This document shows positions 39,761 through 46,088 of a DNA stretch of 64,000 nucleotides, piece after piece. How positions within the stretch are numbered: the stretch's first letter is position 1; every line of letters begins with the position of its first letter. This DNA is from a virus (lineage: Duplodnaviria > Caudoviricetes), in IMG/VR virus record IMGVR_UViG_3300034161_000008, positions 128,001-192,000 of that record; one strand, given 5' to 3'. The notes under the pieces are model-generated. The model did no database searches, was not told the DNA's origin, and was given only the letters and a program-made list of their open reading frames with translations. Made by a program: the position numbers and the translations under genes.

Positions 39761-40435
39761 TTAGATCTTAGTAGTCTTTGATTCTTCATGCTCGCTGCGA
39801 TGCAATGCCAGACGGAATTCGATACCAGCCTTCCAGGTTAGTGTCGCACGAGCGCCGACCAAGAACGTAGTACCCAGCCAAGCCAGATACAGATCTTGTT
39901 CTTTGTCCGAGCCGTCTTTGGCTTTGGATTCTTCACGACCGGTGTTCACCCAGCTCCAGGTGCCACCAACCAATTCCAGCAGGTGCATGCGCTTGGCATG
40001 GTCTGCTCCGTTGCGACCGGCCAATACAAACAGGGCCAGCTCCAGGGACATCGACGAGTGGTCGACGGTCATTGCTTTGTAGCCTTCGGACTTCTTGATC
40101 AGACGTTCGTAAGCTTCGAGGTTGTATTCGTGGGCCAGGTCAGTCAGGCGCAGTGGTTGGCCTTCGTGCTGGGTTGCCAATGCTGGCGGGATGTCGACAG
40201 GTGTGTTGATCACGAGGTTAGGCTCCACTGGAAGGTAATGTTTAGTGGAAGAATCTACAACGTGTTCGCTGTGCTGGTATTCGTTGTCGTGTGCCAGCTT
40301 ATCGAGGGAGCCTTCTGCAAAGACTTTCGGTTGATCAGCATGGACGTGGTGAACGCCACCGGCTGCTGCTGCATCAAGTGCTTTAGCATTGTCGACGATA
40401 GTGCGTTTCTTGCGTTTGTACGATACAGCTACCAT
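39761..40435 (-). CDS. Hypothetical protein (224 aa)
   Basis: GAGGA RBS; basic N-terminal patch. Confidence 0.75.
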   Translation of the reverse strand: MVAVSYKRKKRTIVDNAKALDAAAAGGVHHVHADQPKVFAEGSLDKLAHDNEYQHSEHVVDSSTKHYLPVEPNLVINTPVDIPPALATQHEGQPLRLTDLAHEYNLEAYERLIKKSEGYKAMTVDHSSMSLELALFVLAGRNGADHAKRMHLLELVGGTWSWVNTGREESKAKDGSDKEQDLYLAWLGTTFLVGARATLTWKAGIEFRLALHRSEHEESKTTKI

Positions 40436-40494
40436 TCTTGAATTCCTCTAAGAGCGCAATTTAATCATGGTCTTAAATAACAAGGACCACCTTG

Positions 40495-40504
40495 GTGATA
40501 TGTG
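40495..40504 (-). promoter_or_regulatory. Putative early promoter variant (CACATATCAC)
   Basis: One mismatch to CACATATTAC; upstream of 40435. Confidence 0.45.
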
Positions 40505-40540
40505 GCTATAGGATTTTTTGATCCGATACAAAACGTATAC

Positions 40541-40650
40541 TATGAACTTACCTTACCGTCGGTTCTCCTTCTTGCAACAGACGACTGACGACTGCTCTGG
40601 CCAGTGGTTGAATGTCATTTATAGAGAGTCCATTGGGCTCTCTTTTTTAT
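40541..40650 (+). ncRNA. Candidate small RNA
   Basis: TATG at 40541, then a plus-strand hairpin AGAGAGTCC/GGGCTCTCT with T tract; no plus-strand gene ends here. Confidence 0.3.
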
Positions 40651-40655
40651 GCCGC

Positions 40656-40691
40656 AAAATAAAAGAGGCTGCCTTTTTAGGGGCAGCCTCT
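40656..40691 (-). terminator. Intrinsic terminator
   Basis: AGAGGCTGCC...GGCAGCCTCT followed by TTTTATTTT. Confidence 0.8.
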
Positions 40692-40697
40692 ATGCCA

Positions 40698-42077
40698 TTA
40701 GGCCTGTGCGGTTTTGTGAGCCATGTCCACATGAACTGCTTGACCAGAAGTCCCGGACTCGCGCTGTTCTTCAGCAGGAGCTGGGGTTTCTTTCGGCAGG
40801 CCGTATTCGTTGTTGAACGATACGAACACCCACTTGTCGTCTTGCAGTTCGCTCAGCGGGATTTCCGCCGTGGTGGTTGCAAAGCCCAGATCGACATCAA
40901 CGATCACGGACTCATCACCCACTTCGCTGACGATAACCTGAGTACCGATGTGTTCCAGTTGCAGGCGAACGCCTTTAGTGACTTTCGGAAGACGACGGAA
41001 CAACGTTTCGAACAGACTGACAGAAATCACAGCCAGCTCGCTTTCACCGGTAGGTACGAAGCCACCGTACACCAGACCGCCTTTGCACTCGTTGGCTTCG
41101 AAGTAGCGCGAGTCAGCACCCAGGAGACGATAAGTACCCAGCTGAACCGACAGATCAGGAAGACCGCTGATACGCAGTTCAGGATCGAAGGTTGAACGCA
41201 GCTCTACATCAGCACGAGCAACGTTGCTGTGGTGGTCAGCAATGTCGCTATCGGCCAGTTGCTGGTCGTCACCGGCCGGTGCACCCAGTTGACCAGTAAC
41301 CATGAAGTTCGGTACGGCAATAGCCGACAGAGGTTTGGCTTCGCGTTGACTGATTGGTCCTGCAATCAGGCGCTGGTTGATGCTGAACTCGGCGTTGTCC
41401 AGTTCTTTGCCATCGACGTGTACGAACAGACGGATGTCTTCACGATTGATGCTGATCAGCAGGGAGGCGTCCTCGCCATCTACTTGAAAGCCAGCATCGG
41501 CGATCGGGATTTCGATACGTACGAAATTGTCGTTCGCACGCAGACGTTCTTGCAGCGGGGAACACAGCTTGATGATTTCTTCTTGGTTCGTGATGTTCAT
41601 GTCGGGCTCGTCCGTCGTTGGTGGAGTCAGTTCCGCCGCAGGTGCATGCTCATTAACCCATTCAGCCATCTGCATCAGGGTAATGGTCGGTTCGCTGGCC
41701 ATCACATTTCCGCGTTCGTCGCGGAATTGGAAGGTCAACTTTTGGGTGCCGGTGTCAAAGAACGCCAGATCAACTGCTTCGATCTGATTGTAGTGCGTGA
41801 GCACCGTGCCGAGAGGCAGGCCTTCCAGCTTGCGCAGGAGACCAGCCACCTTTGCCGCTGGCGTCGGGCCGGGGGCAGAGATAGCATCAACAGCAACCCA
41901 GTCAGGACTGTAAGCCAGCTCGTAAGTTGGCACCCATTCCTTGTCGACCAGGTTTTCGTTGGTGTAGTAGTGCAGGGTATCGTTTTCACCCTTCTTGATG
42001 TACGTGCCTTCAGGCCAGCTTTCCAGCCGATAGGAGTGTCCACGTTCCAGGCCGTGCAGCGCTTGATTAAGATTCAT
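40698..42077 (-). CDS. Multidomain protein with an N-terminal DUF2829/Tad2-like domain
   Basis: MNLNQALHGLERGHSYRLESWPEGTYI...WVPTYELAYSPDWVAV fits the A-L-x3-G...R-x2-W...W-x-P...DW pattern. Confidence 0.6.
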   Translation of the reverse strand: MNLNQALHGLERGHSYRLESWPEGTYIKKGENDTLHYYTNENLVDKEWVPTYELAYSPDWVAVDAISAPGPTPAAKVAGLLRKLEGLPLGTVLTHYNQIEAVDLAFFDTGTQKLTFQFRDERGNVMASEPTITLMQMAEWVNEHAPAAELTPPTTDEPDMNITNQEEIIKLCSPLQERLRANDNFVRIEIPIADAGFQVDGEDASLLISINREDIRLFVHVDGKELDNAEFSINQRLIAGPISQREAKPLSAIAVPNFMVTGQLGAPAGDDQQLADSDIADHHSNVARADVELRSTFDPELRISGLPDLSVQLGTYRLLGADSRYFEANECKGGLVYGGFVPTGESELAVISVSLFETLFRRLPKVTKGVRLQLEHIGTQVIVSEVGDESVIVDVDLGFATTTAEIPLSELQDDKWVFVSFNNEYGLPKETPAPAEEQRESGTSGQAVHVDMAHKTAQA

Positions 42078-42826
42078 TATTGCTCTCCATGTACTTGAGT
42101 GGCTTTAACTTTAGCTTGCGCAGTGAATTGTTTGTCAGCAGGCGCCAGTTCGTAACGCACGCTGTTGACGCGGGAGAAGGTAACTTCGCCATCGCGAGGG
42201 TCAATAACCATTACGGTCAGGTCGGTGAGTTCGCCGCCTTCGGTGTAGTCATCGCCTGGATTATCGGTAGCCACAATTGCCCAGTCATCGCCATGGCTCA
42301 TTGCGCTCGCCGAGTAGAAGCCTTTGCGGACTTGCAATACTTCACCTGGGAAGAACGCACGTTGCTGCGATTGCAGTGGACCGAAGAAAGCTTTGAAGGC
42401 TTTCTCTGGAGTCAGTTGCTCGCTATCGTCGCCATGACCTTGGCCTTCTTTCTCAGGTAGCGACTGGCGGTAAAGCTCCAGTTGTTCGTCGCTGATGTAG
42501 AACTGGTTAGGCTTGTCTTGCGTCGGGGATTGCTTTTTGCTACGACCCAACACTCCGACGAAACGAACGCCTTCGTCATCAACGGTGCACCACGACTCGC
42601 CGCCTTGCTGGCCGGTGAGTACGTAGTCTTTGTCTTCGGTCAGGGTGCCGGGAATGGATGCAACAGCCTTGGCGGTGATTTCGCCGTCACGTACAATGAT
42701 CTGGCGAATCACGCAGCCTGGGTTATCACAGCGGTGCAACGATGCAAGTACATCCTCGCGGGTACGTGGCTTACCCACACCCATCAGACCGTCGAGGAGT
42801 TCCATGATACGTGGTTGGTTAGTCAT
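42077..42826 (-). CDS. Hypothetical protein (249 aa)
   Basis: RBS and TAATG coupling. Confidence 0.75.
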   Translation of the reverse strand: MTNQPRIMELLDGLMGVGKPRTREDVLASLHRCDNPGCVIRQIIVRDGEITAKAVASIPGTLTEDKDYVLTGQQGGESWCTVDDEGVRFVGVLGRSKKQSPTQDKPNQFYISDEQLELYRQSLPEKEGQGHGDDSEQLTPEKAFKAFFGPLQSQQRAFFPGEVLQVRKGFYSASAMSHGDDWAIVATDNPGDDYTEGGELTDLTVMVIDPRDGEVTFSRVNSVRYELAPADKQFTAQAKVKATQVHGEQ

Positions 42827-42852
42827 TCTACTGCTTCCTTCTATCGGTAGGG

Positions 42853-42884
42853 CATAGGAAGAGAGGCCATCCAGCCTCTCTCCT
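42853..42884 (-). terminator. Hairpin terminator
   Basis: TAGGA(A)GAGAGGC...GCCTCTCTCCTA flanked by TATGCC. Confidence 0.6.
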
Positions 42885-42892
42885 AAGTTTGA

Positions 42893-43189
42893 TTATTGGT
42901 TGTCTTGATCGATTTTTGTTTCTTGAACGATGCGCGCTGCTTCATCCAGAAGCTTAAACGAATCATCCGCAGGGTTTTCGTACTCGATGTAGATACCATC
43001 TTTCCCGCCTTCGTAATCAGGGCGCTTGATGGTGGGGTTGAAACGGTCGAAGCACAAATTGTTGGCGCACTCAATGATCGTAGCACCATCCTTGTGGGCC
43101 TGGTAAATCACGTCATAGAGATTTGAAGGTGCTGCATTAGCTGCCGAAGAAACGAGAGCCATTGCAACGAACAACGATTTGATTTTCAT
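42893..43189 (-). CDS. Exported protein with Sec signal peptide
   Basis: MKIKSLFVAMALVSSAANA-A signal; Cys pair CANNLC. Confidence 0.75.
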   Translation of the reverse strand: MKIKSLFVAMALVSSAANAAPSNLYDVIYQAHKDGATIIECANNLCFDRFNPTIKRPDYEGGKDGIYIEYENPADDSFKLLDEAARIVQETKIDQDNQ

Positions 43190-43207
43190 GAAGCAGGTCC
43201 TTAGCCA

Positions 43208-43852
43208 TCAGGGCTTGGGAGGTATGTTAAAGTAGGCGTCCGCCCACTCCTTGAGTTGTTTCCGTACACTCTCCACATCACCGGTAGCGTCAATACGCAC
43301 CATGCGGTGAGGATTCTTTCTGAATCGTTCTTCGTAACCACGCTGTACGCGTCTGAAGAAATCCAACGATTCTTGGTCAAGTCTGTCAGCCTTACCACTA
43401 CGACCCGCTAAACGTTTCATGCGAAGCTTTAGCGGAGCAGCAAAGTACAACGTGACGTCAGGTTCGAACCCGTTCAACACGATGCGCTCTAACAGTCTTA
43501 CTTCCTTACGAAACCCACGACCCACGGCTTGATACGCCCACGACGAATCGGAGAAGCGATCGCACAAGACAGTGTTGCCTTGTTGCATGTGTGGTTCGAT
43601 CACGCCTTTTACATGTTGCGAGCGAGCTGCCCACATCAGTAAGAGTTCAGTGTGTTCTGTAAGTTGTTCTTGCGTACTTGGACGTGGCATCAACAGCTGC
43701 TCTCGAAACTGCTCAGCGATTGGTGTACCGCCAGGCTCACGAGTTCGGATACACGGCACCCCATTTTCCTTGAGGTAGTCAAATAGCCAATACAAGCCAG
43801 TGGTTTTGCCAGCCCCGTCGGGACCTTCAACTGTAATGAATTTACCCGACAT
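43208..43852 (-). CDS. tmk: Thymidylate (dTMP) kinase
   Basis: FITVEGPDGAGKTT, TREPGGT, LCDRFSDSSWAYQ, PDVTLY, RIDA. Confidence 0.95.
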   Translation of the reverse strand: MSGKFITVEGPDGAGKTTGLYWLFDYLKENGVPCIRTREPGGTPIAEQFREQLLMPRPSTQEQLTEHTELLLMWAARSQHVKGVIEPHMQQGNTVLCDRFSDSSWAYQAVGRGFRKEVRLLERIVLNGFEPDVTLYFAAPLKLRMKRLAGRSGKADRLDQESLDFFRRVQRGYEERFRKNPHRMVRIDATGDVESVRKQLKEWADAYFNIPPKP

Positions 43853-43863
43853 GACGCTTTACC

Positions 43864-44277
43864 TTAGTACGATTGGTACTCGGTACTAAAGCCCGAGTCT
43901 CTGTCAAAGAACATGCCTTCGATACGAAAGTAATCAATCAAACCTTCGCACTTCGATTGCATGAAGACTGGATACAGACAACGCATCAGTCTGGAACTGA
44001 ATGCTCGTATCCCGAGACACTTCAGTGCCTCTTGTGACCAGCTGGTGACTAACTTGAAAGCTATCTTGCACAAGTTACCACCGATCTGCATTGAGATCCA
44101 ACCCCAGCGATGCTCAGGACGAATCACAAAGTTTTTAGCTTCGAGCACAATCCCAACTCCGGGGACTACCTCGATTCTGCGAAGGAAGGGCGCGTATCCG
44201 AATCGCGCTTCTATCGCATTATGACGACGGTTGGCGGCAGTGGTCCTCACTTTTCGCCGTTCCTTTATCTCGTCCAT
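43864..44277 (-). CDS. Hypothetical basic protein
   Basis: AGGGA RBS; in operon. Confidence 0.7.
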   Translation of the reverse strand: MDEIKERRKVRTTAANRRHNAIEARFGYAPFLRRIEVVPGVGIVLEAKNFVIRPEHRWGWISMQIGGNLCKIAFKLVTSWSQEALKCLGIRAFSSRLMRCLYPVFMQSKCEGLIDYFRIEGMFFDRDSGFSTEYQSY

Positions 44278-44287
44278 TGCTTATTCC

Positions 44288-44653
44288 CTACAGCTCGTCT
44301 GGTTTTATGTTCAATGGCTGACGAGGCAACCACATCACACGCCCATTTTCTTCAATGTGTTTGTACAGCTTCCCGTTAGAGCGTTCACGGATGATCAAGA
44401 ACGTTGGTGTCTCTGGTAGCGTCACCTCCTCGCTGCTGATACCGTCAGGACGACCTACTGGTGCGCAGATGCGCGTCAGATCAGGATCATCCAGCTTAGG
44501 CAAAGCGTTAGCTCGCCAGCCTTCGACGTTATACAGTGTTCGGCTATTGTCTAGTCCCAAGAAGCAGACCATAGGTTGCTTTGGATCAAACCAGTCAGTG
44601 ACTAGTTTCTTGGGCTTGAGTGGAGCCCGACCCGGCAACGTTAGTGTAGACAT
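44288..44653 (-). CDS. Hypothetical protein
   Basis: AAGGA RBS; first gene after the promoter motif. Confidence 0.7.
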   Translation of the reverse strand: MSTLTLPGRAPLKPKKLVTDWFDPKQPMVCFLGLDNSRTLYNVEGWRANALPKLDDPDLTRICAPVGRPDGISSEEVTLPETPTFLIIRERSNGKLYKHIEENGRVMWLPRQPLNIKPDEL

Positions 44654-44677: not shown

Positions 44678-44718
44678 AATAAAACCCCCGAACACTAGAT
44701 TAGTCTAATGCTCGGGTT
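44678..44718 (-). terminator. Long hairpin at the end of the virion operon
   Basis: CCCGAGCATTAGA-CTAA-TCTAGTGTTCGGG, 13 bp including G-U pairs, then GGTTTTATT. Confidence 0.6.
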
Positions 44719-44735: not shown

Positions 44736-46088
44736 TTAATTTAGTTTACGCTCTACGAGCAGCGTAAGCTTGGTGTTTGTGCGGTGCCGGGTACTGAGCA
44801 AGCCAGGCCCAACTGTCTCCACGAAGGAGTTAGCCAGCGAACCCACCCCATCCAACTGCTTGATCTCGTCCCCATCCAGATACAACACGCGAGTAGGGAT
44901 ACCAGGATACAGCAGAGATGGATCAGAGTTCTCCCACACAACTTCAACGTGTGAAACCAAACGACGAGCCACTACAGACGACAGCGCGTAACTGTTTGCT
45001 GTAATCGGAGTGTCTGCCATTTGCACGTTGTTGTTCCCGTTGTCACGAAGCTGTCCAACAAACTCGTTGTTGTTAGCCCCACGAGCTGCGACTGCTTTGT
45101 TCCCAGATACCGTCGCCCAGTCTCCCATGAACTTGGAAGCATCGGCAGCACGGATACCATTACCCTCGTTCAGCTGCATCGCCTCAGAGTCGTCACGGAA
45201 CTTAACGTCTCCTGTAGCCAGGATCACAAGGTTGCGACCATTCTGACGGTAGGTACGTTCACCACCCGGCAGCTTGTTCTTCGGGATGTTGATAATGGTC
45301 AGCGTACGGTCAGCCTTATCAAAACGGGTGACATCGAACGCAGGCCAAAGATACCAACCTTCCTTCCTCAAGTAATAACCCAACCCAGTAGAATAAATAC
45401 CGCCGAGTTCGTTCTGAACATAGTGAGGCACATCCACAAGCTTCATGGGTGGGATCACGTAGTGTTCACGCTCAGAGGTATTCGACGCTTCTACCATCTG
45501 GACAGCACTAGGCATGGCCAGATCATCCACCACGATCTCCTGAGTTTTAACTTTCAGGAACGGGCGAATGAAATCAGTCACCGTAGACTTACGGAAGTTA
45601 CCACCCACCGTACGCATGCGAATCTGTTCGATGGCTTTGGACACGATCTGGAAGTCCAGTGTTTCAATGTTCACCAGATCCATCGTCTCCTCATCCGCAA
45701 CGTTACGCATACCGCCGTCAACGATCGGAGAGCCACGGTCAAACAGAGTCGCAGTGTAGCGTTCAGACTGACGGACTTCGTTCTCCAGCGTCCCTGAGGA
45801 AACTTCACCGATAGGGTTCTTGTACAGAGTGATCTCAAGCTGTGACTTCTTTGGATAAACACGCTTGGCGTACTTACCCATCGACATTGTCACACGCAGA
45901 ACGATCATGTCCGCATAGTTACCCAACCAGTCCTCAAGGATGTCCACAGACAACACTTTCAACGTGGGGAGAGTTTCATCCGGTGTGTGAATCTCAGCAC
46001 TCCAATAGAAGTGCACCGGATTAGGCGTGGCAATAATCGCCTCGACTTCTCGCCACAGAGAACTCTTTTCGATTTCCATTACTACCAC
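44736..46088 (-). CDS. Virion structural protein, probable tail/baseplate (phiKZ gp101-like by synteny)
   Basis: 450 aa; last gene of the conserved structural block. Confidence 0.65.
   Translation of the reverse strand: MVVMEIEKSSLWREVEAIIATPNPVHFYWSAEIHTPDETLPTLKVLSVDILEDWLGNYADMIVLRVTMSMGKYAKRVYPKKSQLEITLYKNPIGEVSSGTLENEVRQSERYTATLFDRGSPIVDGGMRNVADEETMDLVNIETLDFQIVSKAIEQIRMRTVGGNFRKSTVTDFIRPFLKVKTQEIVVDDLAMPSAVQMVEASNTSEREHYVIPPMKLVDVPHYVQNELGGIYSTGLGYYLRKEGWYLWPAFDVTRFDKADRTLTIINIPKNKLPGGERTYRQNGRNLVILATGDVKFRDDSEAMQLNEGNGIRAADASKFMGDWATVSGNKAVAARGANNNEFVGQLRDNGNNNVQMADTPITANSYALSSVVARRLVSHVEVVWENSDPSLLYPGIPTRVLYLDGDEIKQLDGVGSLANSFVETVGPGLLSTRHRTNTKLTLLVERKLN

Follow-up and report, generated by a model that had tools for sequence, protein, structure and literature searches.

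Tad2 is usually regarded as a small stand-alone sponge with an almost universally conserved ligand site. The sponges used here for comparison, all stand-alone proteins of ~75-105 amino acids (aa), are SPO1 gp34.65 (PDB 8SME-8SMG, 8WJE), HgmTad2/AcrIIA7 (8KBI-8KBM), ModTad2 (8V3E, 9EIB) and SptTad2 (8WJD). SPO1 Tad2 is a tetramer that binds gcADPR between its subunits: W25 and W73 hold the ligand, N26 and D79 make polar contacts to it and T78 forms a hydrogen bond (bioRxiv 10.1101/2023.05.01.538930), and the HgmTad2 mutants W21A/N22A and S90A/T92A/D93A show markedly reduced binding (10.1101/2023.11.15.567273). The insertion between strands β2 and β3 forms part of the dimer interface (alpha2) in SPO1 Tad2 and the cyclic-dinucleotide pocket in HgmTad2 and SptTad2.

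Here we analyse a protein of 459 aa encoded in a window of 64,000 nucleotides (nt), part of the 218,436-bp virus record IMGVR_UViG_3300034161_000008, which has direct terminal repeats. At present this is an orphan protein with one recognisable domain, the N-terminal domain D1. An earlier note on this DNA had read it as a possible multivalent immune-signal sponge with three Tad2-like regions or as a sponge-effector fusion. Our analysis instead shows a family in which the Tad2 fold is kept, the ligand site is rewritten and the domain is embedded in a five-module acidic giant-phage protein. We favour, with a probability of roughly 0.4, the reading that D1 is an assembly/recognition module presenting the acidic central domain and two C-terminal barrels multivalently to a macromolecular partner, while a canonical or multivalent sponge is unlikely.

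40698..42077, minus strand: whole open reading frame (ORF; P0001), 459 aa, stop codon at 40698-40700, with homologues that show domain-wise conservation
41886..42077, minus strand: D1, aa 1-64, a predicted divergent, stripped-down Tad2/DUF2829-fold domain

Fold and ligand site of the N-terminal domain

The earlier note had assigned aa 1-64 to DUF2829. At the level of the Pfam threshold this assignment fails: PF11195 aligns aa 1-62 with profile positions 1-72 of 73 at an E-value of 0.032 and 15.2 bits, against a gathering cut-off of 25 bits, and a six-frame search gives D1 19.3 bits, also below the gathering score. Weak N-terminal matches to PF11195 are present in 7 of the 10 family members, the best of them in the relative P0007 (23.8 bits), and every member stays below threshold. 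The fold itself holds. An hhalign comparison of the family N-domain with a Tad2 profile of 121 sequences (SPO1 Tad2, taken from the SPO1 genome, and 120 homologues) gives an E-value of 1.1e-4 over 62 columns with a probability of 56%; this match runs from end to end, and we consider the assignment sound. The leading Foldseek matches of the D1 model are almost all Tad2 (TM score to target <=0.72), and the predicted model comprises an N-terminal helix, an antiparallel sheet, a short helix and a last strand, as in the Tad2 fold. Sequence profile and predicted structure thus confirm D1 as a Tad2/DUF2829 fold, though one below Pfam's own threshold. Two further weak six-frame matches to PF11195 elsewhere in the genome were rejected as chance, one lying inside a macro-domain ORF and the other antisense to a real ORF.

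The residues that mark the fold are also in place. R17, W21, W48 and D59-W60 of D1 align with R22, W25, W73 and D84-W85 of SPO1 Tad2, which represent the Arg before the first Trp, the Trp of the β1-β2 loop, the Trp before the short helix and the terminal Asp-Trp, all invariant or near-invariant among the 121 homologues. The alpha1 pattern L-x-x-A-L-x-x-L-x-x-G is retained as well.

In the ligand site, N26, S76, Q77 and D79 of SPO1 Tad2 are 100% invariant among the 121 homologues and T78 is present in 119 of them; the SPO1, ModTad2 and HgmTad2 chains, aligned from the PDB, all read WNGK and S-x-[TS]-D-x-L-A-x-D-W. The Asn of the WNG loop (N26 in SPO1 Tad2, N22 in HgmTad2) makes a polar contact with the phosphates. 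The corresponding D1 loop reads W-P-E-G, not WNG, with Pro22 for the Asn and one extra residue, and an Asn at this position occurs in none of the ten family members as opposed to all 121 Tad2 homologues. Similarly, D1 reads T51-Y52-E53-L54 in place of S-Q-T-D (S76/T78/D79 in SPO1 Tad2, S90/T92/D93 in HgmTad2), with Glu-Leu replacing Thr-Asp; the register here is not in doubt, because the Trp-Trp spacing is the same 12 residues. D1 also lacks the β2-β3 insertion, seen as a 21-residue gap relative to SPO1 Tad2 in both the profile and the MAFFT alignments. With the Asn and Thr-Asp contacts replaced and the insertion missing, D1 is therefore unlikely, as judged from its sequence, to bind the known ligands in the known way, and the expectation that it binds gcADPR or cyclic dinucleotides is not supported.

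According to the reading that we prefer, D1 would no longer be a canonical sponge for gcADPR, His-ADPR or cyclic dinucleotides and would probably oligomerise via alpha1, by analogy with the Tad2 tetramers. In the oligomer, the acidic central domain and the C-terminal barrels would each be displayed repeatedly to a host or phage protein, and the assembly would act as a multivalent binder or inhibitor produced together with a 249-aa protein encoded upstream. The loops S-W-P-E-G and K-x-W-x-P-T-Y, which correspond to those of the Tad2 pocket, do not vary among the six closer relatives, and this surface is therefore still constrained.

Several points weigh against this proposal. Conservation of the pocket-loop equivalents is just as compatible with a ligand site, both pocket tryptophans are retained in D1, and the Asp at the D79 position is kept in the distant relatives P0007-P0009, if only there. 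Moreover, with alpha2 the domain has lost a portion of the Tad2 dimer interface, which casts doubt on a Tad2-like oligomerisation; the mechanism is one that we infer, with an oligomer and a partner that are hypothetical. The structure models rest on just 6-10 sequences, and their confidence is only middling for the second domain (D2) and for the central domain. Finally, Tad2 homologues are versatile and bind His-ADPR, cCMP/cUMP and N7-cADPR (10.1101/2025.08.24.671296), and a re-tuned pocket is therefore possible.

In such a case, D1 would still oligomerise, with W21 and W48 lining a pocket of Pro/Glu/Glu/Leu chemistry between the subunits, and would sequester a different, perhaps novel, nucleotide-derived immune signal, while the other domains tether or regulate it. 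The two conserved tryptophans and their loops, the acidic residue at the D79 position of some relatives (Asp in P0007-P0009, Glu in P0005/P0006), the diversification of the Tad2 family to several ligands and the location of the gene in a variable accessory island are all consistent with this explanation. We nevertheless consider it improbable, although the foremost of the alternatives: the Asn and Thr-Asp contacts that are absent here are invariant across the 121 homologues and the three solved Tad2 types whatever the ligand, the insertion that provides alpha2 dimerisation or the dinucleotide pocket is missing, the Pfam score is sub-threshold in every family member, and 395 additional residues are needless for a sponge. 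A more specific form is somewhat less probable again, namely a tethered sponge of a nucleus-forming jumbo phage whose Pro/Glu/Glu/Leu pocket captures a signal that no known Tad2 binds, while the barrels and the central domain anchor the complex to a structure of the host or of the phage, or bind a second target.

The family thus shows that the Tad2 fold can be reused, be it to hold a new ligand or to scaffold an assembly, and weak PF11195 matches should not all be annotated as anti-Thoeris.

The domain chain and the proposed repeats

The 459-aa protein is a chain of five folded modules (D1, D2, the central domain, D3a and D3b) joined by Pro/Ala-rich or disordered linkers. The parts that follow D1 are:

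41853..41885, minus strand: linker 1, aa 65-75, Pro/Ala-rich (7/11), predicted local distance difference test (pLDDT) score <50
41649..41852, minus strand: D2, aa 76-143, small alpha/beta domain with the secondary-structure order of D1, conserved in all 10 relatives
41589..41648, minus strand: linker 2, aa 144-163, with the motif P-A-A-E-L-[TS]-P-P
41304..41588, minus strand: central domain, aa 164-258, the most conserved part, pLDDT 55-80, absent in P0008-P0010
41190..41303, minus strand: linker 3, aa 259-296, variable, acidic, predicted disordered
40992..41189, minus strand: D3a, aa 297-362, first predicted SH3/Tudor/KOW-like small beta-barrel
40806..40991, minus strand: D3b, aa 363-424, second predicted small beta-barrel, corresponding to repeat 3 of the earlier note
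40701..40805, minus strand: C-terminal tail, aa 425-459, Pro/Ala/Glu-rich, poorly conserved, disordered

A first AlphaFold2 (AF2) model of the whole protein, built from 6 sequences, has a mean pLDDT of 39 and is unusable outside D1. The second model (model 2), of aa 66-459 and built from ten sequences, reaches a mean pLDDT of 61.8, with 72-84 in the barrels D3a and D3b and 58-71 in D2. The elements of D2 in model 2 are helices at 73-76, 80-84 and 132-135 and strands at 93-99, 102-107, 114-119, 125-128 and 140-142.

We used these models and the family profiles to assess the proposal that aa 76-143 and aa 355-420 are further Tad2-like repeats. The strings quoted in its favour are indeed found in the protein, EPTITLMQMAEWV ending at W140-V141 and IPLSELQDDKWVFV lying at aa 406-419. 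By sequence, the similarity does not rise above chance, with blastp E-values of at least 0.44. The best D1/D2 match in a blastp self-comparison has an E-value of 0.44 over 19 aa; hhalign gives P 0.2-0.33 for D1-D2 and 0.084-0.26 for D1-D3, with all region pairs between 0.08 and 0.6. Against a combined profile of D1 and Tad2, D3b gives P 0.27 and D2 gives P 0.037 with a probability of 1.4%, collinear over 72 columns. Three structure searches with the aa 66-459 model list no Tad2 chain among their 50 best matches, although Tad2 representatives are present in the library that was searched; these lists are filled by matches to the D3 barrels, and D2 has a pLDDT of only 58-71 in the model.

These results bear on the model in which one chain carries three sponge pockets of the Tad2 type (aa 1-64, 76-143 and 355-420). 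All three regions run through a helix, four beta strands, a helix and a strand and end in a Trp, D1 and D2 share P-T-x-x-L-x5-W-V with equal spacing, and the comparison of D2 with the combined profile is a weak hint in the same direction; D2 is a possible, very degenerate duplicate of D1. On the other hand, the three regions have no significant sequence similarity, the first Trp and the ligand-contact residues are absent from both D2 and D3b, and Tad2 pockets form between tetramer subunits and not inside one domain. We find this model very improbable indeed. The multi-pocket idea thus lacks support, as the extra repeats are undetectable as Tad2 and the third region is half of a generic SH3/Tudor/KOW-like barrel pair. 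The same applies to the sponge-effector fusion, since neither an enzymatic nor an effector domain turned up in the other 395 residues.

In the predicted model, D3a and D3b each form a five-stranded small barrel that can be superposed on known SH3/Tudor/KOW-like members. The tandem small barrels nearest to them are Spt5 KOW6-KOW7 (5OHQ), the RapA N-terminal domain (6BOG), a tandem Tudor (8YE8), DUF1653 (3BE3) and VapX (6ZN8). For the central domain, searches with the aa 66-459 model gave no clear structural match, and a Foldseek search of BFVD with the same model returned only uncharacterised proteins at low TM scores. The identity of the central domain to relatives is 75% where that of the whole protein is 53-54%, and 55% in P0007.

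Tad2-fold domains joined covalently to small beta-rich domains have been noted before: Hadary et al. 2025 set aside sponge domains fused to PF21825 (crAss001_48) or to a Dec-like OB domain, PDB 6E3C (10.1101/2025.08.24.671296). The present protein resembles these fusions in its composition and differs from them in that the Tad2-like domain stands at the N-terminus, ahead of four more modules, and in that its family occurs only in one clade of jumbo phages. A search for PF21825 across the whole genome gave no match, and nothing Dec-like was seen.

The protein is strongly acidic across all domains, with 72 Asp and Glu against 36 Lys and Arg and a net charge of about -36, which argues against nucleic-acid binding by the barrels. 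This charge, together with the accessory-island context, is compatible with an acidic decoy: by mimicking nucleic acid or some other polyanion, the strongly negative surface would titrate a defence protein of the host that binds DNA or RNA, and D1 would only multimerise the decoy. We judge such a decoy quite unlikely, as no search returned any likeness to known DNA mimics and charge alone is weak evidence.

The motif of linker 2, P-A-A-E-L-[TS]-P-P (aa 146-153; 41617-41640, minus strand), does not vary among the six closest relatives (53-94% identity), an unusual degree of conservation for a linker, and is not kept in P0007-P0010. Prohead proteases of the phiKZ gp175 type follow an S/A/G-x-E cleavage rule. 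P-A-A-E|L presumably fits the A-x-E pattern of such phiKZ-type sites.

Relatives and genomic setting

Protein searches of 5.8 and 1.8 billion sequences returned only about 10 relatives, all on metagenomic contigs, which measure 212-221 kb where they are long. Their identities span 94-22%. Six are full-length relatives (94-42% identity), and three are short forms of 303-347 aa (P0008-P0010) that lack aa ~155-285. The short forms retain D1, D2 and D3 without the centre, which indicates modularity. Other searches were negative: megablast and tblastn found no match among 50,697 phage records, scans of IMG/VR and JGI metagenome contigs found no related locus, PHROGs and NCBIfam contain no match for the 459-aa protein, the ESM Atlas gave no usable one, and PDB sequence searches with the family profile, with D1 alone and with P0007 gave nothing meaningful.

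The genome is that of a phiKZ-like jumbo phage, as identified by the neighbouring genes: a head-to-tail protein (PF24214/PF24215, 46672-48033), conserved proteins of PHROGs 3245, 3013 and 3289, and a large DUF7941 array. Its nearest cultured relatives are Burkholderia phage FLC9, Xanthomonas phage RTH11 and Ralstonia phage RP12, with 30-43% identity in one conserved structural protein. The gene for the 459-aa protein lies in the following island:

39761-44653: island of ~5 kb with seven ORFs, flanked by a conserved structural gene and by the DUF7941 array

The island contains two small ORFs, a thymidylate kinase (43208-43852), a 98-aa ORF, the 249-aa ORF, the 459-aa gene and a 224-aa ORF, and we count the terminators at 44687-44716 and 40664-40691 within it. 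The thymidylate kinase is the sole island ORF with a family; the other six have none. In FLC9, the homologue of the 450-aa gene (44736-46088) adjoins the DUF7941 array almost directly, compared with ~5 kb in between here, and the 39.8-44.7 kb island is absent from the equivalent site. We therefore class the 459-aa gene, located in a variable island, as accessory and lineage-specific, and its product as a non-core accessory protein of a ~215-kb phiKZ-like (chimallivirus-type) jumbo-phage clade. The genomes of FLC9, phiKZ, RTH11, RP12 and Xoo-sp14 contain no match to the family profile and none to PF11195. FLC9 gp323, the positional analogue, was considered as a homologue and rejected; it consists of a DUF7941 and a lectin domain.

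This setting is also where a virion-associated role has to be weighed, in which the protein would be a fibre- or head-associated component, perhaps cut by the prohead protease at A-x-E sites, for instance the one in linker 2. Structural genes flank the island (the head-to-tail protein, the PHROG 3245 protein at 44736-46088, annotated as virion structural in some relatives, and the DUF7941 fibre array), the unusually invariant linker motif agrees with the S/A/G-x-E rule, and phage fibre and decoration proteins often contain small barrels and Pro/Ala linkers. Conversely, the gene shares its island with a thymidylate kinase and small unknown ORFs, the island is missing from the FLC9 site, five relatives with the same basic virion plan have no homologue, and the protein matches no PHROG structural family. 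The motif is lost in P0007-P0010, and three-residue motifs are frequent by chance. On balance, we see a virion role as unlikely.

The cytoplasmic accessory proteins of nucleus-forming jumbo phages are poorly understood. Should the 459-aa protein bind a new signal or a factor of the host, these phages would have one further tool for counter-defence or take-over.

Gene boundaries and flanking signals

The coordinates 40698-42077 given in the earlier note are correct, and the strand of the 459-aa ORF is minus; the plus-strand translation of this interval is full of stops and holds no ORF. A good Shine-Dalgarno sequence, GGAGAG, lies 8 nt 5' of the ATG. The features that adjoin the gene on either side are:

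42077..42826, minus strand: upstream 249-aa ORF (P0131), whose TAA overlaps the ATG of the 459-aa ORF (TAATG), without family match
40664..40691, minus strand: strong intrinsic terminator with a 10-bp stem, 7 GC pairs and a T-run, beginning 7 nt past the stop codon

Owing to the TAATG overlap, the 249-aa and 459-aa proteins are probably translated together. The 249-aa protein has no match in Pfam, PHROG or NCBIfam; its aa 155-235, in the ESM Atlas's own low-confidence model, give weak small-barrel look-alikes only (DUF4926, DUF2158, KOW, SH3_15).

Downstream of the 459-aa gene, a 260-nt gap holds two terminator-like hairpins back to back on opposite strands, at 40623-40643 (plus) and 40664-40691 (minus). 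Upstream of the 249-aa ORF, an imperfect GC-rich hairpin of ~11 bp without a T-run is located at 42853-42884 on the minus strand, just past the stop of the 98-aa ORF (42893-43189), and is directly followed by a TATG ~27 nt 5' of the ATG of the 249-aa ORF. Hairpin and TATG may mark the head of a two-gene unit of the 249-aa and 459-aa ORFs, as a promoter or processing signal of the phiKZ type.

Outside the window, at record positions 201160-201603 (G000:C1) on the plus strand, the same phage encodes a 147-aa ORF with a Macro domain (PF01661, E-value 1.4e-7). This is an ADP-ribose-binding or hydrolase fold, which could bear on ADP-ribose-based host defences.
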